Assembly (NCBI GenBank): GCA_040753435.1
Contig: JBFMEN010000029.1
Location: forward strand, 8,173-72,172
Direction of reading: 5' to 3'
From: Candidatus Omnitrophota bacterium
GTDB lineage: Bacteria; Omnitrophota; Gorgyraeia; Zapsychrales; JANLHA01
DNA: 64,000 nt
In this document: positions 3,170 through 46,872 of the stretch, piece by piece
Layout of the letters: every line of letters begins with the position of its first letter
Numbering within the stretch: the stretch's first letter is position 1
Notes under the pieces: generated by a model
Database searches by the model: none
The model's input: the letters and a program-made list of their open reading frames with translations, nothing else
Told to the model about the DNA's origin: nothing
Program-made: the position numbers and the translations under genes

Positions 3170-5895
<2,726 letters not shown>

Positions 5896-7082: not shown

Positions 7083-7091
7083 TGGGGATAA
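7083..7091. promoter_or_regulatory. DnaA-box-like 9-mer (tggggataa, 1 mismatch to TGTGGATAA) in the AT-rich dnaA-dnaN intergenic region
   Basis: Read directly from the sequence. Sits in a 160-bp AT-rich spacer. Confidence 0.3.
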
Positions 7092-7170
7092 TGTGTATAG
7101 AATCAAAAACGGCTGAAAATAAATAAGATACGAAAAAAATTTTTGTTAATAAGGTGTTGCTTTTATTTGC

Positions 7171-10884: not shown

Positions 10885-10885
10885 A

Positions 10886-11074: not shown

Positions 11075-11087
11075 TTTCACGTGAAAC
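11074..11087. promoter_or_regulatory. parS centromere site (GTTTCACGTGAAAC core, perfect palindrome)
   Basis: Matches the tGTTTCACGTGAAACa consensus. Lies 200 bp upstream of parA. Confidence 0.75.
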
Positions 11088-11118
11088 TGTTTGGACATTA
11101 AAAATGTCCAAACAGAAA

Positions 11119-11134
11119 GTGTTTCATGTGGAAC
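11119..11134. promoter_or_regulatory. Second parS-like site (TGTTTCATGTGGAACA, 2 mismatches)
   Basis: Read directly. It is accompanied by an 11-bp inverted repeat tgtttggacat/atgtccaaaca at 11088-11114. Confidence 0.5.
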
Positions 11135-11283
11135 ACGAAATGTCCAATCAAAAACTTCAAAAATTTATTTTCATAAATAATAATCGTGTTACAATATTAA
11201 AAAATTCAGTCCATGTTTTAAACGGATAAAGTTTATTTAAATTTAAAATGGACGCTTGGGGTATTGCATAAAAAGGAGGGGAC

Positions 11284-12138: not shown

Positions 12139-12156
12139 AAAGAAGGAGGAGTTTTA

Positions 12157-25622: not shown

Positions 25623-28600
25623 GTGTTGCTTTTCCCCGAACGAAAGTCGTTTCATTTCAAAAAGATAGGACTTTTCATGATTCGCCGCATAACGGCTTCC
25701 ATCATTCTGGCCGTTTTTATTTTAACTATTCCTGCTCAAATGGGAATCGCGCAAGTTTTCACGCCGGTTCCAATGCCCACACAAACAGTTGGTATCAGCA
25801 ACACGTTTTTTCCTCCATTGATGGTCGGAATCCAGGTTGATCCGCAAAATCCGCTAAAATTTGATTTTTTTATGTCAAAAGGGCAAGAAAAGCTCGAAGA
25901 AAACATTAAAAAACAAGAATATTTAAAAATTTTGCGCTATTTTCTTGCGTCAATGACGATTCCTGAGGATCATCTCTGGGTTAACCTTTCTCCAACAGAG
26001 AAAGACCGGATTATCGCGGATGATTTCAGCAGAACTCAAATGGGCATGGATTTGTTGGCCCAGGATTATTTTCTGAAACAACTAACGTCTTCATTAATGA
26101 ATCCAGATGATGAAAGCGGCAAAAAGTTTTGGAAAAAAATTAAAAAAGAGGCTAAAAAACGATATGGAATTACAGAAATTCAAACAAGTGTTTTAAATCG
26201 TGTTTGGGTTCTTCCTGAAAAAGCGATTGTGTATGAACAGGAAAAATCAGCATGGGTAATTTATTGCCGGCTGAAGGTGATGCTGGAAGAAGATTTTTTA
26301 AGTTCCCCGGATCCCCAGTTCCCTGGTTCCGCAGCAAAGGATTTGACCGGGGCGCCGGGGCACGGGGGCACTGGGGAACTTGAAAAGCAGGTTATGCGCG
26401 AGGTAATCATTCCCGAATTGGAGCGCGAGGTCAACGAAGGGAAAAACTTTGCCGTCCTGCGTCAGATTGTCAATGCAATGGTAATGGCCGAATGGTACAA
26501 GAGGTCATTAAAGGAAAGTATTTTAGGGAAGGCTTATGTTAATCAGTCCAAGGTCAGCGGAATCGATACGGAAGATTTTAAACGGAAACAGCAGATTTAT
26601 GACGCTTATTTGAAGTCATTTCAACAGGGCGTTTATGATTTTATTTATGAAGATATTGATGAAGAGACCGGAGCGATTTCGCCGCAACACTATTTTTCAG
26701 GAGGATATCAGCCCGATTTAAAAAAGGCTGTTAGCGTTGTTGATGACCCTGGAGAAATCCCCCTTCAATATCGTGTTCCTTCCGAGCAATACATAAAAAA
26801 AGTAACTCAGTCCGGAATTGATCGTGTGACCGGCGGAGCGCAACTGGTAAGTTCCCCGGAGCAACAATCCACCCCAGCAAAGAGCCCTTCCGGGGAAAAT
26901 TTATCCACAAAAGGCAAGGACATTCCTTCAGACAAGGAAGCCGCAGAAAAAGGTTCTACCGGGAAACAGGGTGGGGGGCTTGATCATGCCATGCTCGCTG
27001 ATTTTAAACCCTCCAAAGATTACAGCAGGCTGGAATTTCCAGAGCTGGCAGAGGATTTTTTTCAATTGATGCAAAAATTTGTCGAGTCCCTGGACGAGGA
27101 GGAGTGGGGGCAAGCTAAACAGGTGTATGTAGATTTGAAAACGATGACCGGGTTTTTAAGCGGGAAAGCGAAGGCGCAATCTTTTGAAGATTTTCGGAAA
27201 ACTACAGGGGCGATTCTGGATCGGACGGAAATTTTTCTTCAGTTGTTCGGCGGGCGGCAGGTGAACACGGAACAGGGTTCGGCCGTCTCCGTGGACATGA
27301 ACGTTCTTCAAAAGGAAATGGTCCAGATTGGGCAGAAGAAATTTTCTGAACAGACACGAAAGCTGATTGATCAAATCATTGAGGAAGTTGTCAGCGAGCT
27401 CTTTGATGATGAGGCTGAGAAGAGAAAGTGGCGGGAAAAACTGACGCGGGATATTGTGATGATGAATTTTGAAAACATGATCCCGGAAAAGGTTATCGGC
27501 GACATCGCCGCGCATAAAGATTATTTGATCAGCACGGTCCTTGAAATGACAAAAGGCCTGGGGCAAGCTGAAGGGTTTTTTGATCCATATGCCTCCTCGC
27601 GGAAAGTTTTCTTGAAAGATTTCGACGGGAATGAAGCGTTGTTCAGGGGCGTCGTTGAGCATGAGCTTACGCATTACGGCATTTTCCGTATTCCTGAACA
27701 ATGGGAAAACATTTCATTCGCCGTCTCACTGTTGGCAGCGATTTCTTTTGCTGAAAAACAGGGCCAGGCAATCGATGTTTATTTTAAGGAATTTTCCGAT
27801 CCGCATGTTTTTACTCCTGCTCTTGTAAAAGCCTTGTTTGAAAAAGGGCGGGTGATGGGGCAAGGCGGCGAGACCGGTTTTATCGTTTCGCCTGGCGTTT
27901 CCGACCGGAACGCCGGATACTTTTCGACCGAGTATTTGCTGTCTTTGACAAGAGAGGTTTTTGAAGAGACCGGGGCGCGGACCGATCTTTTACACGATGA
28001 TTATCAAAAACAGCGCGCGGCCGGGATGATGATCGCAGGCATGTTGCTGGGCATGAATGACAAGGATGCCGCAAAAAAACCTCTCCGGCTGTTAAAAGAT
28101 TTTTTTGATGTGCTGTATGAACGCTACGGCGATCCGACCGAAGCCAGCCCTCAAACCGGTTCCGGGGTTAAAAAATTAATTCAGGATCTTGAAAAATATC
28201 TTTCCTCTTCGGCAGGGATGATCGTCAAGCTCAAACCCGTCGCGAGCGGATCCTGGAATTTCAGGACAACAGGGCAGTTTTCGGCTGAGGTGGATTTTGT
28301 TATTTCCGACCTTTTTCCCCGTTTCTACGACGGGAAAGATAAAAATGATGCTGAGGGACAGATGGAGGCCGCCCGGGAACGGGCCTTCGGCCAGGCGTTT
28401 CTCGCGTTATCGAAAACAAAGAACGGGATGCGCCACCTGATGCACGGGCTGGACCCGTCTATTCAGAACGAGCCAGCTTCGATCCATTTATGGGACACAC
28501 TGTTGTTGTCAAAGTCCGCGAAGATCGGGGTGGATGTGAACGCGCAAAAGCTGAGAACCGGATCCATTGAGGAACAATTTACCGGTTCAGGACGCTGGAT

Positions 28601-31448
28601 CATGCGTGTTTTTAAAGACCGTTTTGAGATCGGCAATCCGATGGTGGAAGAGGCCCTCTTTTTGTCCCAGCCGCGATTTTTGCGGTATCTGGATTCTCTC
28701 CTTTACCGGCGGTTTTATTATGATGAAAAGGAAAAAAAGATTGTTGATCCCAGGGTCAAAGATCCGGTCCTCGACGATGCTGTTGCCCGGACCATGGGTT
28801 CGGCCACGGATGCATCAAATTTTGGATGGGCGAAAATTTTACTGGCCCCGCAGGATTTGACCGATGATCAGATCAAGGATATTTTCAACCGGATATGGCC
28901 GGTGTTTCAGGATCTCTATGCCAGGGACTTAAAGACCGAGGTGAATTGGCGGGCCTATCAGCGCAAGATGCGGGAAGAACGTCAGCAGGCGAGACGTCAA
29001 CAGTTCGAGCAGCTGTCGCCGGAAGGACTTCAGGATCTCGAGGATTACTTCAACAGCCTGCCGGAAGAAACCCGGGAGGCGATCCGCCAGGCTGCCGAAA
29101 AGATGCTGCGCGGGCAAATGGAACAGTTCGGAGAGCAGGGGCAGGACAGGGGACAGGAACAGGGCATGGAAGGGATGGAGGGCATGGAAGGCATGCCCAT
29201 GCCCGAAATGGAAGGAAAGACGGGCCGAAAACAACAACCGGGCAAAGGAGGTTCCAGGGGTTCTCAGCAAACACTTCCCTCCGGAGCACGGCCAGGCCAG
29301 GAAATGTCCGAAGGGGAAGGCGGCGGGGAAATTTCACCTGAACAAATGCGCGGCATGATAGAGGATATCGGACGACAGTTAAAAGGTTTGGAACAGCAGA
29401 TCGATGATATTTCAAACGGGTTGAATGCCGCCCGGTCTCAGACGGAAAATCTGGACCGCGGCGCGAAAGATCTTGACCAGTCCCGGGAATTGGAACAACA
29501 GCGTGAGAAGTCCACGGACCTGCACAAAAAAGCAAAAGATTTACAGGACGATGTTCAGGGGATTTTGAATCAGGGCCGCCGGGTGGAAGAGAGAAGCCGT
29601 CATCAGGAAGACATGTCCCGGGGAATGCAAAACGGCCTGCCTTCTCCGGAAGAAGGAGAAGGAGTTGCCGAGGATTCCAGGGACCTTTCGGGGAAGGCGC
29701 AGGAACTGCTCGATAAATTATCCGGACTTCAGCAAAAGGCTAATCAGCTGGAGAGAAGCACGGGAAATCTTGAGCAAAAATATGGAGAGCATCATCCAGA
29801 TGATTCCCAGGTGGCAAGCCAGTTGCGTGATGTCGAGCGTTCTATCAAGGAAATGAAAGATCAGATTGACCAAGGCCGAGGGGCCGAACGGTCCATGCTT
29901 CGGCAATTGCATGAACTGGAACAGGGAATAGAGAAGCTGGAGAGATCTTTGGATGCGGCCCGTCAATCAGCAGCGGCGGGCAAACAACCGGTTTCAGGAC
30001 AGGAAGACAAGGGAGTCAAGGGCGCCCCAAAATCTTTGGCCTCACAAGCTCCCGCCAATTCCGGAACGAATCAACAATCATCAAGCGAGCCGATTTCCGC
30101 ATCCTCATCTCAGCCGCAGTCTTCAGGTGCCACGGCTTTAAAAGATAACGATCAATCGAAAGAACCGCAAAGCAGTCAATCTTCCGGGACGCTGCATAAG
30201 ACACCGGATACCCTTGATATGCCCAACGCGGAAAGTCTGGAGGAAATGCTTCGGGAATCTCCGGCGGAACGGGCCGACCGTCCCCGACCGAAAAGAAAAG
30301 TGCCTGATCTTAAGGCGGCCCGCCAGTATGAAGAGGATTTGCTTCAGAAAAAAACAGGACTTAACGCGAATCAGCGCGCCGAGCTGGAAACGTATTACAA
30401 CAAAAGAGTCAGATATAAGGGAAGGGAGATGACAGTCCGGCAGCTTGTTAACGACATGACAGAGCGGCTCAAGATATTGACGCTGCCAGTCGAGGATGTC
30501 GGCTTTCAGGGCAACCTGGAGCACGGACCTGTTTTTGATCCGGTCAAGGCTGTCATCGGGCATGACGCTCCTTATGGACAATGGCGGCCCAAGGAACCTT
30601 TGTCGGTTAAGATTACATTTCTTCTTGATAACAGCGTCAGTATGGATTTGGAGTTGGAAGGTGGCGTTAAGCGGATCGATGTCGTCAGACTGACCACGTT
30701 CATTTTATTGAACGCCCTGCTCAATCATAATGAGGAGCGAGCCCGGCTGGGGTATGATCCGATCGAATTTGAGATTGCCTTGTTCGAGGATTCCGAGGCA
30801 AAGCCTCTTGTGTCGCATGAGACAGTCCGGGAGAAAAATTTCCGCAAAGATCGTTTGTTGTATGAAACATGGAACGGGCTCAACGCCGCCGGGCCGGCAA
30901 CGTATTACGCGCAGAATTTGAAAAAATTTACGGCGAGACTCGCCGGCGCTCTGGATAAAGGGTTTGAAAAAAGCACCAGAATTTTAGTGAGTGTCAGTGA
31001 TGAAGATGTGGATGAAGCGCAAAAACAAGACATCCTGGAGACCTATGCTCAGGCGGAAGCGGCAGGACTGCATTTGTTTGTCGCTCCTGTTGGTAACCAA
31101 AAGCTTCTCCGGGACACGATGGATCTCCATCGGGATCATAAAGAACGCGTGATCCGCCCGTTCCCTGTTCCTGAATTTCCCGCCAACGTCATGGACGCTT
31201 TGATGGAGACAATTCCTTCGTTCGAGGCAATGGCCGGCAGGGACGGCGCCATGTTGACGGAAGAACCCAAAGCCATAGAAGGATACAAGCATTTCTTTAC
31301 CCAGAAAATCAACGGACGAGAGTATCTTGTGTTTCACGGGGAGATACCCGCCGTTATTGGGAGCGTGGACATGGAAGGCCTGGATTTGTGCCGGACAAAA
31401 GAGTTCCCGACATCTCTCCGAATGAAGACAAGATCGTCAGGATTTTAG
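25623..31448 (+). CDS. Giant-locus ORF 1 (1941 aa). It has an N-terminal hydrophobic signal/anchor, an HExxH motif, E/Q/G-rich coiled-coil and low-complexity segments, an S/Q-rich linker, and a C-terminal von Willebrand factor A domain with a MIDAS motif. The likely true start is the ATG at 25678.
   Basis: MIRRITASIILAVFILTIPAQMG hydrophobic segment. VVEHELTHYG at 27651-27680. GMEGMEGMEGMPMPEMEG and long heptad-like stretches at about 29000-29950. vWA: KITFLLDNSVSMD (DxSxS, 30621-30647) ... ETWNGLNAAGPATYY ... ILVSVSDEDVD. Confidence 0.8.
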   Translation: MLLFPERKSFHFKKIGLFMIRRITASIILAVFILTIPAQMGIAQVFTPVPMPTQTVGISNTFFPPLMVGIQVDPQNPLKFDFFMSKGQEKLEENIKKQEYLKILRYFLASMTIPEDHLWVNLSPTEKDRIIADDFSRTQMGMDLLAQDYFLKQLTSSLMNPDDESGKKFWKKIKKEAKKRYGITEIQTSVLNRVWVLPEKAIVYEQEKSAWVIYCRLKVMLEEDFLSSPDPQFPGSAAKDLTGAPGHGGTGELEKQVMREVIIPELEREVNEGKNFAVLRQIVNAMVMAEWYKRSLKESILGKAYVNQSKVSGIDTEDFKRKQQIYDAYLKSFQQGVYDFIYEDIDEETGAISPQHYFSGGYQPDLKKAVSVVDDPGEIPLQYRVPSEQYIKKVTQSGIDRVTGGAQLVSSPEQQSTPAKSPSGENLSTKGKDIPSDKEAAEKGSTGKQGGGLDHAMLADFKPSKDYSRLEFPELAEDFFQLMQKFVESLDEEEWGQAKQVYVDLKTMTGFLSGKAKAQSFEDFRKTTGAILDRTEIFLQLFGGRQVNTEQGSAVSVDMNVLQKEMVQIGQKKFSEQTRKLIDQIIEEVVSELFDDEAEKRKWREKLTRDIVMMNFENMIPEKVIGDIAAHKDYLISTVLEMTKGLGQAEGFFDPYASSRKVFLKDFDGNEALFRGVVEHELTHYGIFRIPEQWENISFAVSLLAAISFAEKQGQAIDVYFKEFSDPHVFTPALVKALFEKGRVMGQGGETGFIVSPGVSDRNAGYFSTEYLLSLTREVFEETGARTDLLHDDYQKQRAAGMMIAGMLLGMNDKDAAKKPLRLLKDFFDVLYERYGDPTEASPQTGSGVKKLIQDLEKYLSSSAGMIVKLKPVASGSWNFRTTGQFSAEVDFVISDLFPRFYDGKDKNDAEGQMEAARERAFGQAFLALSKTKNGMRHLMHGLDPSIQNEPASIHLWDTLLLSKSAKIGVDVNAQKLRTGSIEEQFTGSGRWIMRVFKDRFEIGNPMVEEALFLSQPRFLRYLDSLLYRRFYYDEKEKKIVDPRVKDPVLDDAVARTMGSATDASNFGWAKILLAPQDLTDDQIKDIFNRIWPVFQDLYARDLKTEVNWRAYQRKMREERQQARRQQFEQLSPEGLQDLEDYFNSLPEETREAIRQAAEKMLRGQMEQFGEQGQDRGQEQGMEGMEGMEGMPMPEMEGKTGRKQQPGKGGSRGSQQTLPSGARPGQEMSEGEGGGEISPEQMRGMIEDIGRQLKGLEQQIDDISNGLNAARSQTENLDRGAKDLDQSRELEQQREKSTDLHKKAKDLQDDVQGILNQGRRVEERSRHQEDMSRGMQNGLPSPEEGEGVAEDSRDLSGKAQELLDKLSGLQQKANQLERSTGNLEQKYGEHHPDDSQVASQLRDVERSIKEMKDQIDQGRGAERSMLRQLHELEQGIEKLERSLDAARQSAAAGKQPVSGQEDKGVKGAPKSLASQAPANSGTNQQSSSEPISASSSQPQSSGATALKDNDQSKEPQSSQSSGTLHKTPDTLDMPNAESLEEMLRESPAERADRPRPKRKVPDLKAARQYEEDLLQKKTGLNANQRAELETYYNKRVRYKGREMTVRQLVNDMTERLKILTLPVEDVGFQGNLEHGPVFDPVKAVIGHDAPYGQWRPKEPLSVKITFLLDNSVSMDLELEGGVKRIDVVRLTTFILLNALLNHNEERARLGYDPIEFEIALFEDSEAKPLVSHETVREKNFRKDRLLYETWNGLNAAGPATYYAQNLKKFTARLAGALDKGFEKSTRILVSVSDEDVDEAQKQDILETYAQAEAAGLHLFVAPVGNQKLLRDTMDLHRDHKERVIRPFPVPEFPANVMDALMETIPSFEAMAGRDGAMLTEEPKAIEGYKHFFTQKINGREYLVFHGEIPAVIGSVDMEGLDLCRTKEFPTSLRMKTRSSGF

Positions 31449-32788
31449 ACACTTTTTACCCTCTCGCAAAAAATTACACCTCATATTCAAACGATGGGAA
31501 GTATCTGATCCGTAAAGTTCAGGATGGTCTGATCGAGGTCCTGGAAAGCGATCAGGATGTGTTATTTAACATTGCAAACAGTAATATGGGACCGGCGATG
31601 CGTTTGGGTGCAATAAAGAAGATGAAAGAGTTGATTAAAAACGGAAAGAACGTTAAGAAATGGACAAGGATGCTGGAAGAAGTTATCCAGAGGGAAGCAG
31701 ATTTAGAAGTTTTTATCGCATTGGGAGAAGCGCTTGGAGCGGGGTATAAGGCGGGAGCTCCGGTGGGAATAACGGAGGAATGGTTTATAGCGAAATTACA
31801 TGTCGGAAAAGGGAGTATTCGTTCAGGCATGGTAAAGATGATTCAGGGAGTGATTGAAAGCGAGAAGGGCGGTGAAAAGTGGGTCAGGATGCTGGAAGAA
31901 ATGATCCATAGGGAAACAGATCCGGAAGTTTTTATCGCATTGGGAGAAGCGCTTGGAGCGGGGTATAAGGCGGGAGCTCCTGTGGGATTAACGGAAGCAG
32001 TGATTAAAGCAAATTTGAACACCGGAAACGGCATTGAGAATTGGGGAGTTCGTTTAGCTGCCGTGAAGATGATCCAGGGGTTGATTGAAGGCAGGATTGC
32101 TGTTGCGAAGTGGGTGAGAATATTGGAAGAACGTTTCAAGGTTGAAACAGAGAGGGATGTTCTAGGCGCGGTGGTCGAAGCGCTGGCAGCGGGGTATAAG
32201 GCGGGAGCTCCTGTGGGATTAACGGAAGCAGTGATTAAAGCAAATTTGAACACCGGAACCGGCGTTGAGAATTGGGGAGTTCGTTTAGCTGTCGTGAAGA
32301 TGATCCAGGGGTTGATTGAAAGCAGGATTGCTGTTGCGAAGTGGGTGAGAATATTGGAAGAACGTTTCAAGGTTGAAACAGAGAGGGATGTTCTAGGCGC
32401 GGTGGTCGAAGCGCTGGCAGCGGGGTATAAGGAGGGGGCCTCTGTGGGATTAATAGACGCAGGGATTAAAGAAAGATTAAACACCGGAAATGGCATCGAG
32501 AGCCGGAGAGTTCGTTTGGCTGCTGCGAAGGTAGCCCAGAGATTGATTGAAAGGGAGAAGCGCGATGAAGGATGGGTGGGGTTGATTGAAAGCAGGATTG
32601 CTGTTGCGAAGTGGGTGAGAATATTGGAAGAACGCTTCAAGGTTGAAACAGATCCGGAAGTTTTGATCGCATTGGCAGAAGCGCTGGCAGCGGGGTATAA
32701 GGCGGGAGCTCCTGTGGGATTAACGGAAGCAGTGATTAAAACAAATTTGAACACCGGAAACGGCGTTGAGAATTGGGGAGTTCGTTAG
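31388..32788 (+). CDS. Giant-locus ORF 2 (466 aa) made of HEAT/ARM-like helical repeat units. It is probably the same gene as ORF 3, interrupted by a 1-nt frameshift, and possibly continuous with ORF 1 through a -1 frame change.
   Basis: About 77-aa units KWVRMLEE.IQRE.D.EVFIALGEALGAGYKAGAPVG(I/L)TE... The frame is open upstream to 31174 (61-nt overlap with ORF 1). It ends at a TAG created where gttcgtttagct became gttcgttagct. Confidence 0.7.
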   Translation: MPDKRVPDISPNEDKIVRILDTFYPLAKNYTSYSNDGKYLIRKVQDGLIEVLESDQDVLFNIANSNMGPAMRLGAIKKMKELIKNGKNVKKWTRMLEEVIQREADLEVFIALGEALGAGYKAGAPVGITEEWFIAKLHVGKGSIRSGMVKMIQGVIESEKGGEKWVRMLEEMIHRETDPEVFIALGEALGAGYKAGAPVGLTEAVIKANLNTGNGIENWGVRLAAVKMIQGLIEGRIAVAKWVRILEERFKVETERDVLGAVVEALAAGYKAGAPVGLTEAVIKANLNTGTGVENWGVRLAVVKMIQGLIESRIAVAKWVRILEERFKVETERDVLGAVVEALAAGYKEGASVGLIDAGIKERLNTGNGIESRRVRLAAAKVAQRLIEREKRDEGWVGLIESRIAVAKWVRILEERFKVETDPEVLIALAEALAAGYKAGAPVGLTEAVIKTNLNTGNGVENWGVR

Positions 32789-38700: not shown

Positions 38701-41700
38701 GGAGTTCCATCCGGGCTGGATCCGAAAGAGGCGGAGAGAAGGTTGCAACTTGAAGGAAAAATAGAGGAAAAGAAATCTCGTTTAGGCGCGGTCAGCATGA
38801 TCCGGGCGGTAATTCAAACTGGATATGATATTGAGAAATGGCAGGATGTGCTGAGAAAGAGAATGACGGGCGAGAAGGATGAGGAAGTTCTGGCAGCGAT
38901 TAAAGAGACGCTCGCGATGGTGGATATTTATGAAAAAATCCGTCAAAACGATTTGGACGGTTTTGGGAAATTGATTTCCTCGGCGGATTTGAAAATGATC
39001 GGCGCGGTGTTCGAAGCTGTTACCGTTATGGGAAATCGGACTGGAGTGGTGGATAAAAACAGAGAGGAAGAAGTCAAGCGAAGGGAACGCCTTAAACAGC
39101 GGTGGGATCAATTGGTGAATCGCCGGAAAGTTCTGGAAGAGCTGCTTGAGGTGCTGAAGGAGCAGGAGACGCTTGGATTGCCCGGAGGGGCGTCCCTTTT
39201 TGAAGAAGAAAAAAATATTTTTTCCAGCGAGCGGAAGGAAAAACTGATTCAGAATATGGTGGCTCGGGAAACAGAGATTGAACGGGCGTTAATGACTGTT
39301 GGTGGTGGTTTCTGGAGAAACCGTTTAGCCGCGACCAAGGCAGTTCAGAGATTGATTGAAGCCGGACTGGGTGTTCAAAAAAGGGTCGGCTTTTTGGAGC
39401 AGAGAATTAAAATTGAAGACAATATTGATGTTTTAAACGCTATGGCAGCAGCGTTGGGCGCGGGTTACCGGGCTGGGGCTGCGGTTGGGTTAACTGGAAC
39501 AAAATTTGAGGAAATACTTGAAATCGAAAAAGATCACGGGGCGATTCGGAGCCCCGCAGCCAAATGGGTTTTGATCAGGAATGTTAAAATGATCCAGAGT
39601 TTGATTGAAGGCGGACATGGTGATGAGAAATGGGTCCGTCTTTTAGAACAAAGGATCGCGGTTGAAACAGATGAGGAAGTTCGGAATGTTTTAAGTGAAG
39701 CTTTGGGCAGCGGATACCGGGCCGGGATTTCTGTCGGGATGAATGAGTCGGACATTGAAGCATCTTTTCAAAAAGGGAAAGGCGGAGAAATTTACAAGAT
39801 CAGGGCTTTAATCAGGGGCGGGCATGGGAAATGGGTTGATTTTTTGGAGGAAAGAGTCAGGAAAGAAGAAAAGGACACAGCTGCCTTTTTGGGGTTGGGG
39901 AAACTTTTAGGAGAGGTTTATCAATCCGGCATTCCGACCGGCGTGGATCCGGATGTGATGATAACATTGTTGAATTCAGGAAATGGCATGACGGACAGGT
40001 TTACCCGCTTAAGTTTAGTCAGGATGATCAGAGGATTAATTGAAGGAGGGCAGGATGTCGGGGTCTGGGTGAAAGCTTTGGAAGAAAGGATGAAAAAAGA
40101 AACAAATTATGATGTTCTTCAAAGCATTGGCGAGGCTTTGGGGGCCGCATATCGTTCCGGCGCCCATGTCGGTTTGGATCTGGATACGATTAAGAGTAAG
40201 TTAAATTTTGAAGGTGAAGATGCCAATGCCGGGTGGCCGGTTCGTTTCGGCGCAGCCAGGATGATTCAGGGCCTGATTGAAAGAGGATACAACGTTGAGC
40301 AATTGATGATTATGATAAAAGAGCGAGTGAGAGACGAAGAAATAAATATCGATGTCCAACGGGCGCTTCAGGAAACACTCGCGATGGCGGGTATTTATGA
40401 AAAAATCCGTCAGAACGATCTGGACGGTTTTGGGAAATGGATTTCCTCGGCGAATTTGACAACGGTTATTGCGGCGGTAGAGGTTCTTGACGCTATGAGA
40501 TCGGAAGGAAAAAATATTCTTTGGCGTGAATGGAAGGAGAAGTTATATCAGAGCGTTGTGTCACGGAAAGCCGGATTGTCCTTGACTTCCCATGTGGAAG
40601 ACAGGAAAGGGCTTTTAGTTAAAGTCGGGATCATCCAGCGGTTGATTGAAGCGGGACAGGATGTTCAAAAATGGGTCGGTCTTCTGGAGGATGAAATTTG
40701 GGATGAAGTGAGGCCGGATGTTGTAATGGCCATGGGAGAAGCGCTGGGGGCTGGTTACCGGAAAGGAGCCGTGACCGCTTTAACCGAAGAAATGATTGCA
40801 GGGATGCTTAATGACGACTCTGGCGATGAGTCCTGGAAAAAAAGAGTCGGAGCAGCCCGGATGATGCAAGGGTTGATTGAGAGCGGGAATGAACCTGCAA
40901 AATGGGCTGCTATTTTGGAACAGAGATTAAGGACGGGAATCGATGGCACTTGGGTTTTAAATGCTCTTGGGGATGCGCTGGCTGCCGCATATAGAAGAGG
41001 AATTCCTGCTGCTTGGGATGAAGAAACGATCAAAACGAATTTCATCGGAAAAGACGATGATTGGAATAAAGGCTTTATCGCGGCTAATGTGATTAAAAGG
41101 CTGATTGAGGATGGCCAGGAAGTTGAGAAATGGGTCAGGTTTTTGGAACAGAATGTTGATTTTACAAAAAATGACAGTTTTTTAAGAAGTTCGATTGAGA
41201 CGTTGGCAACGGGATACCGATCCGGAATTTCCTCAGGGTTGCAACCGAATATAATCTTTGATGTACTTAATTTCGGAGCAGATTCTTCAGGGTGGGGAAT
41301 TCGTTTCGCCGCGGCCGGGTTGGTTGGGAGCTTAATTGAAAGCGGGCAGGCTCGCGAAAAATGGGTTGGTGTTTTGGAACTCAGGATTTTTGGGGAAGAA
41401 GATTTTCGTGTTTTGCGGGCTTTAAGCGATGCCCTGGGAGCGGGATACCGGGCCGGAGTTCCGGTCGGGCTGGATCCGGAAGATGTTGAGAAAGGGATTG
41501 ATCTTGAAGGGGAGACAGGGGAACAGAAATTTCGTTTTCGCGAGGTTAGCCTGATCGGGGCGTTCATTCAAGCCGGATATGATATTGAGAAATGGCGGGA
41601 TGTGCTGAAAAAGAGAATGGCGGTCGAGAAGGATGAGAATGTTCTATCGGTGATTAAAGAGACACTCACGACGGCGGTTGTCGATGAAAAAATCCGTCAA

Positions 41701-44700
41701 AACGATCTGGAAGGTTTCGGGAAATGGGTTTCCTTGGCGCATTTGACAACGATCAGGACGGCGTTAGAGGTTGTTAACACCATGGAAAAGCGGATGGGAT
41801 CGGTGGATAAAAACAGAGAGGAAGAAATCAAGCGAAGAGAACGCATTCAACAGCGGCGGGAGCAATTGATGGAGCGCCGGAAAGTCCTGGAAGAGTTGCT
41901 TGAGGTGTTAAGGGAACAGGAGGGGCTCGGGTTGACTGGAGGGGCGGTCTTTTCTGAAGAAGAAAAAAATATTTTTTCCCGTGAATGGAAGGAGAATTTA
42001 TATCAGAAAATTTTATCAAGGAAAGAAGAGATCAAAAAGGCGTTAGGTGCCGAAGATTTACAGATTCGACTTGACGCAGTTTCGGTCATCCGGGAGCTGA
42101 TTGAAAATGGGAAAGACATCGGGGAGTGGGTTGAAGTTTTGGAACAGCGGTTCAGGATTGAGGATGAGCCCAGGCTCGTCAAGGCTTTGGGGGAGGCGCT
42201 TGGATCCGCTTACCGGACAGGGGTGCCATGCGGCCTGAGCGAAGAGGAAACAAGAAAAAAGCTTGATCCATCGAACTGGGAGGCGAGTCATTTTGAATTA
42301 ATGCGATTTGGAGCAATCAAGCTGATCCATGGACTTATAGAAGGAGGGCATGATAAAGAAAAATGGGTTCGTATTTTAGAAGAAAAATTTTCTTTGTCTG
42401 AGGCCTCAGCTGCCTCGATAGCTTTAGCTGAGGCTCTGGTTGAGGGCTATCGGGACGGGGTCGCGCCTGGATTAAAGGAAGAAGGGCTTGAGACGATGCT
42501 TACTTTCGGAGAGGGGGATGGCTTTTGGCGGTTTCGCCTCGCCGCAATTAAAGTCATTAAATTTTTGATTGAAAAAGGAGAGAATGTCCCGAAGTGGGTT
42601 GAAATGTTGGAGAAGCGAATCCTCGTGGAAAAGAATGATACGGTTATGAAAGCGCTTAGTGAGGCGCTGGGTATCGGATACAGGGCGGGAGCCCCAGCCG
42701 GATTGAACGAAACATTGATCAATACGAGCCTTGGGATAGGAAGCAGTGTAATGCGAAAGAGGGAAGTCAGAAAAATCCAGAGCTTGATTGAAGGAGGACG
42801 GGATATCGGGAAGTGGGTTGCTGTTTTGGAGATGCGGATTAATGTTGAAACAAATACGGAAGTTTTAAGTGCGCTCGCGGAAGCGTTAAGCGCGGGTTAC
42901 CGTGCCGGTGCTGCGGTCGGGCTAAACGAAACAGCGATTCTGGCGGGATTGAATCCAGGGAAAAATGAAGAAGAAGGAGTGCGGGCGGTCAAAATGATCC
43001 AAAGCCTGATTGATGCGGGGCTCAATGTCGAAAAATGGGTACGGGTTTTGGAACACAAAATGAAAGAGGAAAACCGCGATCGTGTTGTGCAGGTTATGGA
43101 AGATGCCGTAATTGCGGGTTATCAGGGCGGAGTTTCTGTCGGTTTGGACAAAGAAACGGTGATGAAGATGCTTTATTGGGAAAAAGATGTTTTAAGCTGG
43201 GAAATTCGGTTGAGAGCAGGCCGGATCATTCAGGCCTTGATTCAGGAAGGCCGTGAGATCGAGACCTGGGTGGCCATATTGAAATCGAGGAAAAAAAGAG
43301 AGAGAACGTGGGATGTTTCATCGGCGCTTCAGGAAACGATCGAGACGGCAGATGCTTATAAAAAAATTCGTCAGAACGATCTGGAGGATTTCGGTAAATG
43401 GCTCTCTTCGGCGGATTTGAAAATGATCGACCCGGTGTTCAAAGCTGTTAACGTCATGGAAAACCGGGCTGGAGTGGTGGATAAAAACAGAGAGGAAGAA
43501 ATCAAGCGAAGGGAACGCCTTCAACAGCGGCAGGATCAATTGGTTAATCGTCGGAAAGTCCTGGAAGAGTTGCTTGAGGTATTGAAGCAGCTGGAAACAG
43601 TGAAAACAACATTTGTCAGGACACGGCAATGGACTTCGGCAGAAACCGGGACAGTGGCAGAGATGAAAAAGCAAACGGTTGAGGTTCTCCGGGCCAAAGA
43701 ACAAGAGATGATGGAGGAGTCGTTTTCAAAAGAGAAGGCAAGATTAATTCAATTGTTGATTGAAAATGGAAGTGACGTTGAGAAGAGGAAGTGGGTAGGG
43801 ATATTGGAAGAACGGGCAAAGAGTGAAACAGACATTGACGTTGCTCGTTCCTTGGGAGCTGCTCTTGGAGCGGGATACCGTGCCGGGGTTCTTCCGGGTT
43901 TAACGGAAGCAGAGATTCAAAACAATTTAAATATTGCCTGGATTGGGGGAATTCGGTTCGGTGCTGTAAAGATGATTCAAGGGTTGATTGAAAAAGGAAT
44001 TAACGTTGAGGCGTGGGTAAGGATATTGGAAAAACGGGTAAAGATTGAAACAGACAATGACGTTGCTCGTTCCTTGGGAGCTGCTCTTGGAGCGGGATAC
44101 CGTGCCAGGGTTCTTCCGGGTTTAACGGAAGCAGAGATTCAGAAAAATTTAAATACCGGAAACGGCACTGATAATTGCGGTATTCGTTTCATTGCAGTGA
44201 AGATGATTCAGGGGTTGATGGAAAACGGTCAGGATGTTGAGAAGTGGGTGAGAGCATTGGAAGAATGGGCAAAGAGTGAAACAGAAGCAGATGTTATTCT
44301 CGCGCTGGAGGAAGCGCTTGTAGCGGGATATCGGGCCGGAGTACTTGCGGGATTAAAGGAAGAAGAGATTAAAGAAAATTTGAACAGCGTGGTTTGGAAT
44401 ATTCGTTTCATTGCCGTGAAGATGATTCAGGGGTTGATTGAAAACGGTCGGGATGTTGCGAAGTGGGTGAGAGCGTTGGAAGAACGGGCAAAGAGTGAAA
44501 CAGATGGAGATGTTATTTTCGCCTTGGTAGAAGCGCTTGTAGCGGGATACAAGACTGGAGTTTTTCCGGGATTAACGGAAACAGAGATTCAGCGAAATTT
44601 AAATGCTGGAAACGACTCTGAAGATTGGAATATTCGTTTGATTGCAGTGAAGATGATTCAGGGGTTGATTGAAAACGGTCAGGATGCTGAGAAGTGGGTG

Positions 44701-46872
44701 AGAGCATTGGAAGAATGGGCAAAGAGTGAAAAAGATGCAGATGTTATTTTCGCCTTGGGAGAAGCGCTCGGAGTGGGATACCGTACCGGGATTTCTGTGG
44801 GATTAACGGAAACAGAGATTCAGAAAAATTTAAATACCGGAAACAGCGCTGAGAATTGGAAAATTCGTTTTTCTGCCGTGAAGATAATTCAGGGGTTGAT
44901 TGAAAACGGTCAGGATGGTGAGAAGTGGATGAAGATATTGGAAGAACGGGTAAAGACTGAAAGCAATGAAAATGTTTTACAGGCGATGGGCGAGGCGATG
45001 GCGCGGGGTTTTATTCAGAAAGAAGACAGCGAGGGTTTTGCCCTGTGGGGTTCGACAGTTAATGCTTCAGTCTTGTCCGGAGTGCTGACTGCTCTGCAAA
45101 AGGCGAAGAATGAAGAAGAGGAGATTAGACAGCGGTCATTTGAAACAGTGGATAAAGACAAACTGATTGAGCGCAAGGCTGTTTTGGAAGAATTGCTTGA
45201 GGTATTGAAGCAGCTGGAAACAGTGGAAACAACATTTGTCAGGACACGGCAATGGAATTCGGCAGAAACCGGGACAGCGGCTGAGATGAAAAAGCAAATG
45301 GTTGAGGTTCTCCGGGCCAAAGAACAAGAGATGATGGAGGGGCTGTTTTCAAAAGAGCAGGTTAGGTTGATTCAGGTGTTGATTGAAAACAGGCAGGACG
45401 CTGAAAAGTGGATGAGAAGGCTGGAAGAACAGGCAAAGAGTGAAGCAGATACAGACACTGTTTTCGCCTTGGGAGAAGCGCTTGCAGCGGGATACCGGGC
45501 CGGAGTACTTGCGGGATTAAAGGAAGAAGAGATTAAAGAAAATTTGAATACCGGGAATGGCAATGTAGATTGGAAAATTCGTTTCATTGCAGTGAAGATA
45601 ATCCAGGGGTTGATTGAAAGCGGTCAGGATGTTGAGAAGAGGAAGTGGGTGGGGATATTGGAAAAACGGGTAAAGATTGAAGCAGACGCAGATGTTATTC
45701 GTGCCTTGGGAGAAGCGCTTGGAGCGGGAGACAAAGCAGGCGTGTCTGTGAGATTAACGGAAACAGAGATTCTGGAAAATTTGAATAACGGAAATGGTAC
45801 GGAGAATTGGAAAATTCGTTTCAGTGCCGTGAAGATGATTCAGGGGTTGATTGAAAATGAGAAGGACGTTGAGAAGTGGGTCAGGATATTGGAAAAACGG
45901 GCAAAGATTGAAACAGATGGATCTGTTGTTCTCGCCTTGGGAGAGGCGCTTGGAGCGGGATACCGTGCCGGGGTTCCTGCGGGATTAACGGAAACAGAGA
46001 TTGAAGAAAATTTAAATGCTCCATGGACTTGGGGGAGTCGGTTCATTGCCGTGAAGATGATTCAGGGGTTGATTGAAAATGAGAAGGAAGTTGAGAAGTG
46101 GGTCAGGATATTGGAAAAACGGGTAAAGATTGAAATAGGTGGAGATGTTGTCCTTGCTTTGGGAGAAGCGCTCGGAGCAGGATACAAGGCCGGTGCTTCT
46201 GCGGGATTAACGGAAACAGAGATTAAAGAAAATTTGACTAATTTGACTAATGATGAGGATCAGAGATTTCGTTTTTCTGCCGTGAAGATAATTCAGGGGT
46301 TGATTGAAAACGGTCAGGATGGTGAGAAGTGGATGAAGGTATTGGAAGACCGGGTAAAGACTGAAAGAAATGAAAGCGTTTTACAGGCGGTGGGCGAGGC
46401 GATGGCGCGGGGTTTTATTCAGAAAGAAGACAGCGAGGGTTTTGCCCTGTGGGGTTCGACAGTTAATGCTTCAGTCTTGTCCGGAGTGCTGACCGCTCTA
46501 AAAGAGGCGATGAAAGAAGAAGAGAATCCAGATGGGACGCTTCTTCAGCAAACATTGCGAAAAAAGTTTGACAGCCTGAAGAAACAATTACGATCTCTTG
46601 AAGATGGGAATTCCATTGGAAAAAAAGCGGATTCCGCGATTTTGACGGAAGATAAAGACGGGAATAGAGATAAGGCTGGAATAAAACCTCCCGGAGGGAT
46701 TGATCTTAACCCGCAAGGAATGGAAATGGAGATTCAGGGAAATGGCGGTTTTCAATGGGATTTGCCTGCGAATTTTGATTTGGAGAGCATAGAGGGTCTG
46801 ACTCCTGTCATCATTGAAATCGCTCCGGGTTCTTTTCCGGTTTCCTTGTTGCAACTGGTTCAGGCAAAGTGA
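32773..46872 (+). CDS. Giant-locus ORF 3 (4699 aa). Two tandem AAA_5-like (MoxR/midasin/dynein-type) modules are embedded in about 45 HEAT/ARM-like ~77-aa helical repeat units, organised into roughly 5 super-modules separated by a recurring ~120-aa coiled-coil spacer.
   Basis: Walker A-like GETGLGKDE (33562-33582) with Walker-B-position IIREAHK and ARVVLSVN. Second module Walker A VGKPGAGKST (34747-34776) with Walker-B-position ILNLTES and TIHDINPPG...FPDDFIERH. Repeat unit: KWVRILEER.K.E.D.DV..ALGEALGAGYRAG.P.GL.E.EI..NLN.G....W.IRF.AVKMIQGLIE.G.DVE. Spacer: YEKIRQNDL.GFGKW.S.A.L ... KNREEEIKRRERLQQR...RRKVLEELLEVLK. Confidence 0.8.
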   Translation: MGSSLAAVKMIQGLIESKIDVAKWVRMWVRILEERFKVETERDVLGAVVEALAAGYKAGAPVGITDAGIEERLNTENWGGRLAAVKMIQGFIERRIAVAKWVRILEERFKVETDPEVLIAWGEALAAGYGEGAPVGLTDAVSSGEWRSLREFGKSSETKEINGDNGERIFENAQGLRWKINEEGNFQISQNNGQFIPLKQNLEGNGPRDLYEIDASRILAFDQISETVNVLVKENDAWRVEHELMMEEEDRANSWDGVMLRLIGETGLGKDEITLAAANLIGEEVYVAVGNSDMDVEDLVTGFQSLGGQEKGTSGVEPSGLNKVMHNGGWYIIREAHKLRPGVFNALKSHVSAKDHKWPVMRDGIERFETIQNNPRARVVLSVNRIRKGITGASTETNGPMQDRERDLEFYWLEPDDEVDLQVEYALAMAREKGLHSDDWETFEDQVRKDARELVDIAAQLRLTFAGYNAEQQAEILRDWNLIDSKNLVQKMVKDSRIKQLFESGPAFETGEMLKRPPSPRVVKNILQHLILFPKDRRYRSFEIVKKYYNFHAEISGELEEAAIEKFTEWESKRPDSHPVKLTEKSFIVDGQDLIIRPEPEADGTTYWDEVRVPLHSKASIRTRGVPGEVLDWIKSGANAQNLYSYLQGRALGKHWIFVGKPGAGKSTMIAAIQKLLNAPGSMKLEITEETRKDHLTYSRNIKEFETRFTKEVLPSAMEDEYGEGQILNLTESTQGRPSMLSLLNEVSERNELPDPNSKTQVKKAKRGFGTIHDINPPGTADRLKAFPDDFIERHMIMWFDTPPSDQVTMYLEEAGQGRTFPEDIKFQVHPSLIGQPRQDANGNSEKYDDGEIKYTGIVGIGQEINRKLMEDPYFFPKDREISYRNLQAFVKAIVAYYERDISMGNTPQDVILNLFMETFTLEGKPGKMLEWRTNILKVFQDLGLYDPQAGQDDGSGGIVPDAIEKFLNKEGVLVQNLPVLKEPDSGYLNIDRILRFLQTNTVGLGIRRNLDELSSEAGKLLSAETKESLSKWNALPVSEKARRLRAIREIYDVLGLIKENRFDSKQGPAYQSEEQVRLGAIIEQIVSVIVVQWNWPQEIFTRADLTETAKMSLTEILDRQRDRFPEISNAIYKVMLSDGKKEYLDELEKEIAKKGKDVSALKEIVNILKQTRALFFQNLIKSLNQKIREEELAVSNRQPDAPDQGNWTRAQVEEDLARVNQSLAGIEKERGSLINNEVKNISLREGRDKLLQRISLRKEALLSDVQKQDGNDFDWEIRLRAVRIIQSLVEAGDDSWDMLLEERIMREDDFDVLEALGEALGAAYRAGADVGLDEENIHLGLEAQEDEIRFGAVMMIRALIEGGNDIEKWVRLLEKAIEKEEEFAVLRAMGDVLGMGYQAGVSSGLNKTTVRRQLNSDKGSESRAIQKIRALIKGGDAATRQRWVRILEKRILIEEEPSLVKGLGEVLGIAYKEGVRCGLDKAKIQSMIQTPGGSPNSDFRLGALQMIRGLIEKGMDVGHWVEVLEKAISVEMDQKLLDLMGDALAVGYQAGAPVGLDENFIKAGLEVRGIDHWEGHRLGAVKSIRALIQGGHDVEKWSNVLAERRAKEDSPIVVPAIQEAMEMGVAYEKIRRGDWESLAEWSSLTDLSSAYEALRAINAMSARKQNSFSSEWKDLLIQKIRARESELTLNSSQEDWKMLVVTVRIIQRLIESGDDAEKWVGFLEDEIRDEVRPDVLMAFGEALGAVYRKGAPFGLREGMIRVMLNDDAYWKTRAGAARMIQGLIESGQTPKKWVSVLKRRLKSESDVDVLHLIGKALAAAYRRGLLAGGDETRIKRDVEGINADWDKGFIALNVIKSLIEDGQEVEKWVRFLESKIKTEQDDSILRVMIEALGAGYRFGIPVELDVDTIKEILSFKEDVIDWEIRFAADGLVLELIKRRHLPGTLVNLLEQQMLVETHSRVLPALSEALEAGYRAGVPSGLDPKEAERRLQLEGKIEEKKSRLGAVSMIRAVIQTGYDIEKWQDVLRKRMTGEKDEEVLAAIKETLAMVDIYEKIRQNDLDGFGKLISSADLKMIGAVFEAVTVMGNRTGVVDKNREEEVKRRERLKQRWDQLVNRRKVLEELLEVLKEQETLGLPGGASLFEEEKNIFSSERKEKLIQNMVARETEIERALMTVGGGFWRNRLAATKAVQRLIEAGLGVQKRVGFLEQRIKIEDNIDVLNAMAAALGAGYRAGAAVGLTGTKFEEILEIEKDHGAIRSPAAKWVLIRNVKMIQSLIEGGHGDEKWVRLLEQRIAVETDEEVRNVLSEALGSGYRAGISVGMNESDIEASFQKGKGGEIYKIRALIRGGHGKWVDFLEERVRKEEKDTAAFLGLGKLLGEVYQSGIPTGVDPDVMITLLNSGNGMTDRFTRLSLVRMIRGLIEGGQDVGVWVKALEERMKKETNYDVLQSIGEALGAAYRSGAHVGLDLDTIKSKLNFEGEDANAGWPVRFGAARMIQGLIERGYNVEQLMIMIKERVRDEEINIDVQRALQETLAMAGIYEKIRQNDLDGFGKWISSANLTTVIAAVEVLDAMRSEGKNILWREWKEKLYQSVVSRKAGLSLTSHVEDRKGLLVKVGIIQRLIEAGQDVQKWVGLLEDEIWDEVRPDVVMAMGEALGAGYRKGAVTALTEEMIAGMLNDDSGDESWKKRVGAARMMQGLIESGNEPAKWAAILEQRLRTGIDGTWVLNALGDALAAAYRRGIPAAWDEETIKTNFIGKDDDWNKGFIAANVIKRLIEDGQEVEKWVRFLEQNVDFTKNDSFLRSSIETLATGYRSGISSGLQPNIIFDVLNFGADSSGWGIRFAAAGLVGSLIESGQAREKWVGVLELRIFGEEDFRVLRALSDALGAGYRAGVPVGLDPEDVEKGIDLEGETGEQKFRFREVSLIGAFIQAGYDIEKWRDVLKKRMAVEKDENVLSVIKETLTTAVVDEKIRQNDLEGFGKWVSLAHLTTIRTALEVVNTMEKRMGSVDKNREEEIKRRERIQQRREQLMERRKVLEELLEVLREQEGLGLTGGAVFSEEEKNIFSREWKENLYQKILSRKEEIKKALGAEDLQIRLDAVSVIRELIENGKDIGEWVEVLEQRFRIEDEPRLVKALGEALGSAYRTGVPCGLSEEETRKKLDPSNWEASHFELMRFGAIKLIHGLIEGGHDKEKWVRILEEKFSLSEASAASIALAEALVEGYRDGVAPGLKEEGLETMLTFGEGDGFWRFRLAAIKVIKFLIEKGENVPKWVEMLEKRILVEKNDTVMKALSEALGIGYRAGAPAGLNETLINTSLGIGSSVMRKREVRKIQSLIEGGRDIGKWVAVLEMRINVETNTEVLSALAEALSAGYRAGAAVGLNETAILAGLNPGKNEEEGVRAVKMIQSLIDAGLNVEKWVRVLEHKMKEENRDRVVQVMEDAVIAGYQGGVSVGLDKETVMKMLYWEKDVLSWEIRLRAGRIIQALIQEGREIETWVAILKSRKKRERTWDVSSALQETIETADAYKKIRQNDLEDFGKWLSSADLKMIDPVFKAVNVMENRAGVVDKNREEEIKRRERLQQRQDQLVNRRKVLEELLEVLKQLETVKTTFVRTRQWTSAETGTVAEMKKQTVEVLRAKEQEMMEESFSKEKARLIQLLIENGSDVEKRKWVGILEERAKSETDIDVARSLGAALGAGYRAGVLPGLTEAEIQNNLNIAWIGGIRFGAVKMIQGLIEKGINVEAWVRILEKRVKIETDNDVARSLGAALGAGYRARVLPGLTEAEIQKNLNTGNGTDNCGIRFIAVKMIQGLMENGQDVEKWVRALEEWAKSETEADVILALEEALVAGYRAGVLAGLKEEEIKENLNSVVWNIRFIAVKMIQGLIENGRDVAKWVRALEERAKSETDGDVIFALVEALVAGYKTGVFPGLTETEIQRNLNAGNDSEDWNIRLIAVKMIQGLIENGQDAEKWVRALEEWAKSEKDADVIFALGEALGVGYRTGISVGLTETEIQKNLNTGNSAENWKIRFSAVKIIQGLIENGQDGEKWMKILEERVKTESNENVLQAMGEAMARGFIQKEDSEGFALWGSTVNASVLSGVLTALQKAKNEEEEIRQRSFETVDKDKLIERKAVLEELLEVLKQLETVETTFVRTRQWNSAETGTAAEMKKQMVEVLRAKEQEMMEGLFSKEQVRLIQVLIENRQDAEKWMRRLEEQAKSEADTDTVFALGEALAAGYRAGVLAGLKEEEIKENLNTGNGNVDWKIRFIAVKIIQGLIESGQDVEKRKWVGILEKRVKIEADADVIRALGEALGAGDKAGVSVRLTETEILENLNNGNGTENWKIRFSAVKMIQGLIENEKDVEKWVRILEKRAKIETDGSVVLALGEALGAGYRAGVPAGLTETEIEENLNAPWTWGSRFIAVKMIQGLIENEKEVEKWVRILEKRVKIEIGGDVVLALGEALGAGYKAGASAGLTETEIKENLTNLTNDEDQRFRFSAVKIIQGLIENGQDGEKWMKVLEDRVKTERNESVLQAVGEAMARGFIQKEDSEGFALWGSTVNASVLSGVLTALKEAMKEEENPDGTLLQQTLRKKFDSLKKQLRSLEDGNSIGKKADSAILTEDKDGNRDKAGIKPPGGIDLNPQGMEMEIQGNGGFQWDLPANFDLESIEGLTPVIIEIAPGSFPVSLLQLVQAK

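Follow-up and report, generated by a model that had tools for sequence, protein, structure and literature searches.

We describe a giant gene locus in a Candidatus Omnitrophota bacterium. The stretch of DNA analysed, called the window in the following, comprises 64,000 nucleotides of contig JBFMEN010000029.1 (assembly GCA_040753435.1, positions 8,173 to 72,172). The locus occupies positions 25623-46872 of its plus strand and is divided into three open reading frames (ORFs), which, as judged from sequence comparison, are the pieces of one ancestral giant gene. This assignment is made because a related contig, L003, crosses both junctions in one ORF and because most relatives are single chains. 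The chain predicted from the three ORFs contains, in this order, a signal-like N-terminus, a helical domain with an HExxH motif, a charged coiled coil, a vWA domain, a conserved junction segment, two AAA_5 modules and a long repeat array; in the subclade of the window, the whole chain would sit between an N-terminal and a C-terminal domain, which we name bracket domains. It belongs to a conserved family without a name, whose members have 3,000-7,500 residues and occur mainly in metagenome-assembled genomes (MAGs) of Omnitrophota. Arguing from sequence and from analogy with known systems, we hold with moderate confidence that these proteins could be single-chain MoxR/vWA remodelling machines with a repeat scaffold that varies between lineages.

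The giant gene and its two frame breaks

ORF1 (25623-31448, 1941 residues), ORF2 (31388-32788, 466 residues) and ORF3 (32773-46872, 4699 residues) lie on the same strand; ORF2 and ORF3 are each one frame step off the preceding ORF, and ORF1 and ORF2 overlap by 61 nucleotides (31388-31448). A first-pass annotation, which had been made from the letters of the window, gave these coordinates and lengths, the overlap and the frame step exactly, and proposed one giant protein of about 7100 residues if contiguous. In the deposited annotation ORF1 starts at the methionine at 25677, and from there it is identical to 'MAG: hypothetical protein AB1650_03925 [Candidatus Omnitrophota bacterium]'. ORF3, read from an internal methionine, is identical to the cluster representative P0123. 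The locus contains no uninterrupted frame from start to stop: the frame changes at about 31334/5 and at 32786. Adding one base at each break yields 7,083 open codons (7,065 residues from the methionine), in agreement with the length that had been proposed.

The first break is a deletion of one nucleotide at gtgttt^cacgg (about 31334/5, within 31332-31337), which leads from the frame of ORF1 to that of ORF2. It was located by alignment with homologues and falls in a short T run inside the conserved motif LVF-K/S-RG..W-ERG-G (here LVF/SRGD, the slash marking the break): its first half reads EYLVF in the frame of ORF1, and SRGDTRRYWERGHGRPGFVPDKRVPDISPNEDK, which completes it, is in that of ORF2. 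As a correction to the first-pass annotation, the first switch has to be placed at the T run at 31332-31337, upstream of the overlap. At the second break (32785-32788), the window reads cgt-t-ag, the corresponding sequence in two paralogous repeat copies being cgt-tta-gct; one T (about 32786) of a short T run is missing within a HEAT-like unit. The two paralogous copies read AATTGGGGAGTTCGTTTAGCTGCCGTG, the base being absent from the copy at 32780. A canonical -1 slippery site was considered for either break and rejected, as neither gtg-ttt-cac nor cgt-tag provides an X XXY YYZ heptamer. A scan of metagenomes for the site of the first break, with or without the extra base, gave no match. The sequence fits consensus or assembly errors as well as recent mutations.

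The relatives allow the original gene to be read across both breaks. L003 (CAZABZ010000020.1) is a contig of a GTDB representative MAG; its AAA region and that of the window are 50% identical. On this contig, one open frame of 3,743 residues, which runs off the 5' end, encodes HExxH region, coiled coil, vWA domain (DTSGSM), junction (FLVFKRGNETLYWERGLGG..VPDIAPNEDKIVAMLN), both AAA modules, repeats of about 48 residues and the C-terminal domain, in this order. When 1.84 billion representatives were scanned by means of HMMER for the AAA region, 58 clusters matched (public data, clustered at 50% identity), 43 of them at E < 1e-30; many of the matching proteins have 3,000-7,493 residues, and their motor lies 1,500-3,700 residues from the N-terminus. 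According to a BLAST comparison with segments of the window, about 25 of 30 representatives combine HExxH region, coiled coil, vWA domain and AAA region in one polypeptide. The same domain order occurs as single ORFs in independent assemblies (L003, L004/P0145, P0132 and P0137); among these, P0145 (6,951 residues, 'AAA family ATPase', Omnitrophica) is encoded by an intact gene within a 178-kb contig. A scan of GTDB genomes returned one relative only, and a scan of metagenomes for relatives returned no match.

The conserved junction between vWA domain and motor (RYWERGHGRPGFVPDKRVPDISPNEDKIVRILDTFYP...YSNDGKYLIRKV, 31337-31597) follows the vWA domain without interruption in L003 and eight representatives, in which the motif LVFKKxGxPELxWERGxGG...VPDxDxNE is unbroken; the window recovers the motif only via the frame change at 31334/5. 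Further evidence that the three ORFs belong together comes from the two bracket motifs, each of which occurs once in the window, at opposite ends of the locus. The idea of one giant protein is supported for the ancestral gene; a single product of about 7,100 residues from the present assembly, in which the frame is truly broken twice, is putative. The closest relative of the window copy, L001 (GCA_035477245.1, contig DATIKT010000041.1; 41-44% identical), has a lesion of its own: an in-frame TGA at 1746-1748 replaces a nearly invariant tryptophan codon of the junction, 8 codons downstream of the break in the window (31332-31360). The 24 codons between this TGA and the annotated ATG of L001 are 58% identical to the window sequence read in the ORF2 frame.

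The remote-homology search that the first-pass annotation had recommended led to these 58 public clusters, and the architecture is accordingly not unique to the window. AAA_5 and HEAT_2 are, moreover, already listed among the frequent domains of giant proteins of Omnitrophota. Literature searches found no description of the combination HExxH-vWA-2xAAA_5, and database entries label the family members only as 'AAA family ATPase' or 'hypothetical'. In P0126 (3,579 residues), the junction and AAA part (734-1775) precedes the HExxH, coiled-coil and vWA part (2026-3335) within one polypeptide; a unit thus ends where the next one starts, an order which suggests that tandem multi-unit versions of the family exist. 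Two labels of source genomes are conspicuous: L001/P0001, P0004, P0013 and P0017 (GCA_035477245.1) come from a MAG labelled 'Candidatus Bathyarchaeia archaeon', which contains bracket proteins and the bacterial giant gene, and L003 is labelled 'uncultured Planctomycetales'. Both labels are probably errors of binning or classification.

Domains of the chain

The vWA domain (30315-31334) has a complete MIDAS, formed by DNSVS (30627-30641), a threonine (30900-30902) and an aspartate (30999-31001); the sequence DNSVSM is read from the translation at 30627-30641. The corresponding residues D1669, S1671, S1673, T1760 and D1793 are invariant in 16 of 16 family sequences. The window segment itself (30450-31331) matches no Pfam family, even at E ≤ 5; among the orthologous segments, 14 of 16 match PF00092 and 12 of 16 match PF13519. 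A shallow profile of three sequences reached only E = 0.3 in a search of the PDB, whereas a deeper family profile matched vWA structures: best was the MIDAS domain of midasin (E = 8e-6), followed by integrin I-domains, CaV alpha2delta and CobT. An AlphaFold model of the domain (predicted local distance difference test, pLDDT, 82; predicted template modelling score, pTM, 0.77) was compared by means of Foldseek and gave 188 PDB matches at E ≤ 1e-3. All 50 matches listed are of the vWA type (including NorD, ANTXR2, integrin I-domains and Rea1/MDN1); the vWA domain of NorD from the NorQ-NorD complex and the MIDAS domain of Rea1/MDN1 are among those listed with the longest alignments. The predicted vWA fold with an intact MIDAS motif, for which the first-pass annotation had suggested modelling as a check, is thus confirmed at the level of sequence and model.

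Two tandem AAA_5 modules had also been predicted, and both exceed the gathering score of PF07728 (22 bits). Module 1 (33556-33843, 31.1 bits) contains the Walker A motif GETGLGKD (33562-33585) and YIIRE at the Walker B position (33763-33777); module 2 (34738-35109, 46.4 bits) contains the Walker A motif GKPGAGKST (34750-34776) and ILNLTE at the Walker B position (34951-34968). For the whole ORF, the AAA_5 match has E = 7.8e-20. A single-sequence search of the PDB with the AAA region found no match; the deeper family profile did match, namely CobS (9ujv; module 2, E = 8e-4), CbbQ/NirQ/NorQ (5c3c; module 1, E = 2e-3) and NorQ. The Walker A motif of module 2 is canonical. That of module 1 ends with GKD, and family-wide the lysine is followed there by D or G. 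In the clade of the window, neither module has a canonical Walker B motif: the glutamate is kept, and the aspartate is replaced by arginine in module 1 (IIRE) and by threonine in module 2 (NLTE). In most remote members, module 1 shows DE and module 2 EE. A post-motor region (35110-36600), which precedes the main repeats, is conserved across the family. MoxR-type AAA_5 modules and their MIDAS-vWA partner are hence fused in one locus, as had been proposed.

Upstream of the vWA domain lies a conserved, mostly helical region of about 650 residues (27003-28952) with the motif HELTH at 27660-27674. Its residues H680, E681 and H684 and the downstream E695 (27705-27707) are invariant in 11 of 11 sequences. 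Pfam and NCBIfam, searched with whole ORFs and with sub-segments, gave no match for this region, and a profile search with the HExxH alignment returned one protein only, probably owing to a word-index limit. The AlphaFold model (pLDDT 85.6) is mostly helical, with a small beta-sheet preceding the motif helix; the matches are weak and consistently point to gluzincins (minigluzincins such as MJ1213; the helical M2 and M32; M36 and M1). The likeness to gluzincin metallopeptidases consists of the invariant HExxH with a downstream glutamate, the small sheet in the model and these weak matches. We regard the region as a probable zincin-like domain of a new family, a peptidase activity being unproven. 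It is followed by a linker rich in E, Q, G and S (28953-30314), assigned by composition, which contains coiled-coil and low-complexity parts (GMEGMEGMEG, an S/Q-rich tract) and has weak coiled-coil matches to SMC, Rad50 and Laminin_II. The hydrophobic N-terminus, HExxH, GMEGMEGMEG, the S/Q-rich linker and DNSVSM were all read in the translation in the order in which the first-pass annotation had listed them.

A self-built hidden Markov model (HMM) detected 45 HEAT-like units of about 75 residues (37 full and 8 half units), which matches the earlier estimate of about 45; on ORF3, HEAT_2 (PF13646) exceeds its cut-off of 27.7 bits with a score of 36.6. The main solenoid (36601-46416) accounts for 37 of these units, of which 30 are full and 7 half. 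They are grouped into seven blocks, each with 4-5 full units and one half unit, and spacers of 75-135 residues lie between the blocks. The remaining 8 units form block 0 (31598-33216), an insertion between junction and motor that neither P0001 nor L003 has. Its 231-bp DNA repeats share about 90% identity, which points to a recent intragenic duplication, and the second frame break lies within this block. In the locus as a whole, DNA repeats with a period of 231 bp and 78-90% identity are found at 31946-32553 and at 43788-46366. The arrays differ among the relatives: NHL-type repeats were seen in P0002 and P0145, a repeat of about 48 residues in L003, and ARM/HEAT-like repeats in P0001.

The two ends of the chain turned out to be shared far beyond this family. 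From the translation, a segment resembling a signal peptide or membrane anchor (MIRRITASIILAVFILTIPAQMGIAQ, 25677-25770) was read; it contains the only strongly hydrophobic 19-mer of the protein, and most complete family members start similarly. It is followed by the N-terminal bracket domain (25771-26740), characterized by DPxNPLxFDF, WVNLSPxEKDRII, LLAQDYxLKQ, NEGKNFAxLRQ and YFSGG. When the first 1,110 residues served as query, more than 1,574 proteins matched (E about 1e-95), in every case only within the first 350 or so residues, which comprise the signal-like segment and this domain. Where a source name is given, the proteins come from Omnitrophota or from the MAG labelled Bathyarchaeia. 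Their cargo is varied: ankyrin and HEAT repeats, methyltransferases, receiver domains, HATPase_c, glucose-6-phosphate isomerase, LpxC, NUDIX and peptidases. The C-terminal bracket domain (GGIDLNP...TPVIIEIAP..., 46690-46869) was found by an HMM match at the end of ORF3 (E = 4e-23); all six complete bracket proteins that were read share this C-terminal domain of about 60 residues (GGIDLN...[IV]P[VI]II[NE]I.P) with ORF3. The same MAG encodes at least three further bracket proteins (AB1650_05655, _05670 and _06515).

There is no Pfam or NCBIfam model for the N- or the C-terminal bracket domain, and no description of them was found in the searchable literature. They define a very large uncurated superfamily, and the bracket could be a key to how ultra-small, probably host-dependent bacteria deploy their proteins. 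The first-pass annotation had overlooked the bracket nature of the two ends. Remote members such as P0132, P0137 and P0145 have kept the signal-like N-terminus and lack the bracket. In the bracket-less proteins P0136, P0137, P0142 and P0158, another short motif (..[IV]IQD.H...EAQ.NIA..L..) follows the signal-like segment within the N-terminal 110 or so residues.

Chromosomal surroundings

Upstream of the locus, gyrA, gyrB, dnaN and dnaA are located on the minus strand (638-8538); yidC, parA and parB follow on the plus strand (9292-13017). Next come thrS, infC, rplT, pheS, pheT, rarA and the giant locus. Downstream of it are genes for a PEP-CTERM protein of 222 residues, MTHFS, RNase Y, YmdB and a PilZ protein, and then gltX, trkH, trkA and glnS. 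The window thus probably covers the replication origin, and the genes around the locus are ordinary chromosomal housekeeping genes. The 30 or so other genes of the window appear intact and of full length when compared with their Pfam models, so the frame breaks are restricted to the giant locus. The GC skew changes its sign at about 7-8 kb, and the G+C content falls to 0.36-0.38 at 6-12 kb. Across the HEAT-like array (36001-46000) the skew is 0.34-0.43, compared with about 0.1-0.18 in adjacent genes; this high value is due to the repeat codons, which are rich in Gly, Glu, Ala and Val, and not to replication strand bias.

The neighbour at 47066-47734 is a genuine PEP-CTERM protein (222 residues; PF07589, E = 1.9e-7), as the first-pass annotation had stated. 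The giant protein itself has no PEP-CTERM motif; its C-terminus is the GGIDL domain. At L004, the sole homologous locus with flanking genes, the PEP-CTERM neighbour is absent. There is no evidence of a functional link between the two genes, and such a link was rejected.

Proposed mechanism, alternatives and known systems

MoxR-family ATPases operate together with vWA partners; in NorQD, an extension of the vWA protein enters the pore of the hexamer, and the motor remodels the linker of NorD, so that the force reaches the client (PMC13036017, PMC9976466, PMC7159879). The observed domains, their order and their conservation as one chain in the relatives can be combined with such precedents to outline how the repaired chain might work. 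If it behaves like NorQ/NorD, CbbQ/CbbO, CobS/CobT and midasin, its MIDAS site would bind to an acidic residue in the client. A ring could form from the AAA modules, for example with three chains contributing six modules, and ATP-driven movement transmitted through the vWA domain and the linker would remodel the client or insert or extract a metal. Since the repeat array varies by lineage, it is a natural candidate for the client- or partner-binding surface, and the solenoid would in this way set specificity. Processing of the client, or of the giant protein itself, is a possible task of the HExxH domain.

Three points weigh against this proposal. The competence of the motor as an ATPase is uncertain from its sequence, as both modules carry another residue in place of the Walker B aspartate and module 1 has GKD and not GK[ST]. 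The N-terminal segment resembles a Sec signal or an anchor with its N-terminus inside; the ATPase would then be extracytoplasmic, and no ATP would be expected there. Finally, the window copy may be dead, given a frame that is broken twice next to some 30 intact genes. The second point can be turned around: the giant could be an exported or prey-delivered mechanoenzyme resembling midasin. The signal-like N-terminus and the bracket, which more than 1,500 proteins with enzymes of the cytoplasmic type share, would mark a route by which the phylum displays large multi-domain cargo or injects it into host or prey cells, which hold ATP. The giant would then be a MoxR/vWA remodelling effector, whose HEAT, NHL or other array picks the host target. 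We consider such a role quite improbable.

The third point leads to the question of whether the locus still encodes a giant protein. If both deletions were real and fixed, the gene would be a decaying pseudogene with at most an N-terminal piece of 1,923 residues as functional product. Two independent breaks in one gene among about 30 intact ones, the in-frame TGA of the closest relative and the many public family entries that are fragments starting at internal methionine codons fit this explanation. However, all 7,083 codons are open apart from the two single-nucleotide lesions, which indicates very recent damage or sequencing error, and the stretch from the break to the next start is 58% identical to L001, compared with 41-44% elsewhere; decay is therefore unlikely in our opinion. 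Alternatively, the gene could have undergone a real fission into a vWA-bearing and an AAA-bearing protein plus a small HEAT protein that act in trans, like the canonical MoxR/vWA systems, in which motor and adaptor are encoded separately (PMC13036017, PMC7159879). The breaks in the window and in L001 lie within 8 codons of each other, exactly between vWA domain and motor, and start codons lie just downstream (GTG at 31388; ATG at position 1821 of L001). On the other hand, the sequence upstream of these starts is conserved as coding in both genomes, the second break is found within a HEAT-like unit and not at a domain boundary, and most relatives are single chains, which makes a fission quite improbable. 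UGA is the stop codon most easily read by tRNA-Trp. Programmed recoding, i.e. a -1 frameshift here and UGA read-through in L001 that set the ratio of short to full-length product, would explain why two related genomes are broken within 8 codons, why the TGA replaces a nearly invariant tryptophan (TGG), and why the sequence downstream is conserved as coding. The missing slippery heptamer, the second break, which is an ordinary loss of one nucleotide in a repeat, and the fact that there are only two such cases among otherwise continuous relatives make recoding a far-fetched explanation.

A trivial cause would be an assembly artefact, in which unrelated repeat-containing genes were collapsed or joined into a false giant locus. 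Repeats of 231 bp can locally mislead short-read assemblers, and the second frameshift lies in a repeat region; yet the same order occurs in independent assemblies as single ORFs, and the bracket domains are found correctly at both ends, on which grounds a mis-assembly was rejected as having next to no probability. A further functional alternative is a conflict or defence system of the vWA-MoxR kind, whose repeats would sense an invader, whose motor would set the threshold and whose HExxH domain would be an effector peptidase. The C-terminal arrays vary by lineage (HEAT, NHL and others) like the sensors of NTPase-centred conflict systems, and vWA-MoxR cores with fused effectors and beta-propellers have been described (PMC7159879). 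Against this stand the absence of any PADLOC model match beyond P-loop noise, the housekeeping neighbourhood adjoining oriC, the signal-like N-terminus and the lack of a visible third component of the VMAP or iSTAND type; a defensive role thus seems very unlikely.

The ternary vWA-MoxR conflict systems (Kaur et al. 2020, PMC7159879) share with the giant family a core of MoxR and vWA combined with variable repeat, effector or beta-propeller parts. They are encoded by several genes, have a third component (VMAP, iSTAND or FtsH) and occur mainly in multicellular bacteria (PMC7159879), in contrast to the giant, which is one chain of about 7,000 residues without a third component or a PADLOC match. 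No single chain of such a size is described among them, and the giant is not one of these systems. The giant proteins of Omnitrophota described as 'Archaeovorins' (West-Roberts et al. 2023 preprint; 2026 complete-genome preprint) have in common with it the phylum, HEAT_2 and AAA_5, which are among the 20 most frequent domains of these giants (10.1101/2023.11.21.568195), and signal-like N-termini. They exceed 30,000 residues and possess many transmembrane helices and SecA-like domains, whereas the HExxH-vWA-2xAAA_5 core and the bracket are undescribed there. For these giants, too, enzyme domains of the cytoplasmic type are predicted outside the membrane (giant-protein preprints). The signal-like N-terminus is thus part of a puzzle common to Omnitrophota giants, in which enzymes with cytoplasmic cofactors are predicted outside the cell.

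With respect to the single-chain remodelling machine that we favour, NorQ/NorD, CbbQ/CbbO and CobS/CobT are the relevant two-protein systems. The likeness consists of the matches of the AAA profile and of the vWA profile and model, the complete MIDAS, and the inferred action, in which an adaptor captures the client and a ring remodels it. In contrast to them, the giant described here has both partners in a chain of about 7,000 residues, two AAA modules per chain and a non-canonical Walker B motif; it adds HExxH, coiled coil, repeat scaffold and signal-like N-terminus, and there is no nor, cbb or cob context. By domain membership and, on analogy, by mechanism, the system is of the MoxR-class/vWA type.

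The eukaryotic proteins midasin (Rea1/Mdn1) and VWA8 resemble the giant in having AAA_5 modules of the dynein/MoxR type and MIDAS in a single chain, long helical parts and an acidic low-complexity linker. The analogy to midasin drawn by the first-pass annotation is borne out insofar as the MIDAS domain of midasin is the best PDB match of the vWA profile; it is limited with regard to the motor, whose nearest solved relatives are CobS, CbbQ and NorQ. The giant of the window has two AAA modules and not six, its vWA domain is N-terminal and not C-terminal of the motor, it is bacterial and has a signal-like N-terminus, and no other region is similar. An orthologue of midasin was consequently rejected on the basis of the number of modules (two, according to Pfam and PDB profile searches) and the reversed order. 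MoxR ATPases with vWA partners occur widely, few of their clients have been identified, and the best-understood single-chain version, midasin, is eukaryotic. The giant family would represent a bacterial single-chain version, in which the adaptor is placed before the motor, a zinc-motif domain has been added and the scaffold is swapped between lineages; such a family offers a natural series for probing the specificity of MoxR/vWA machines.

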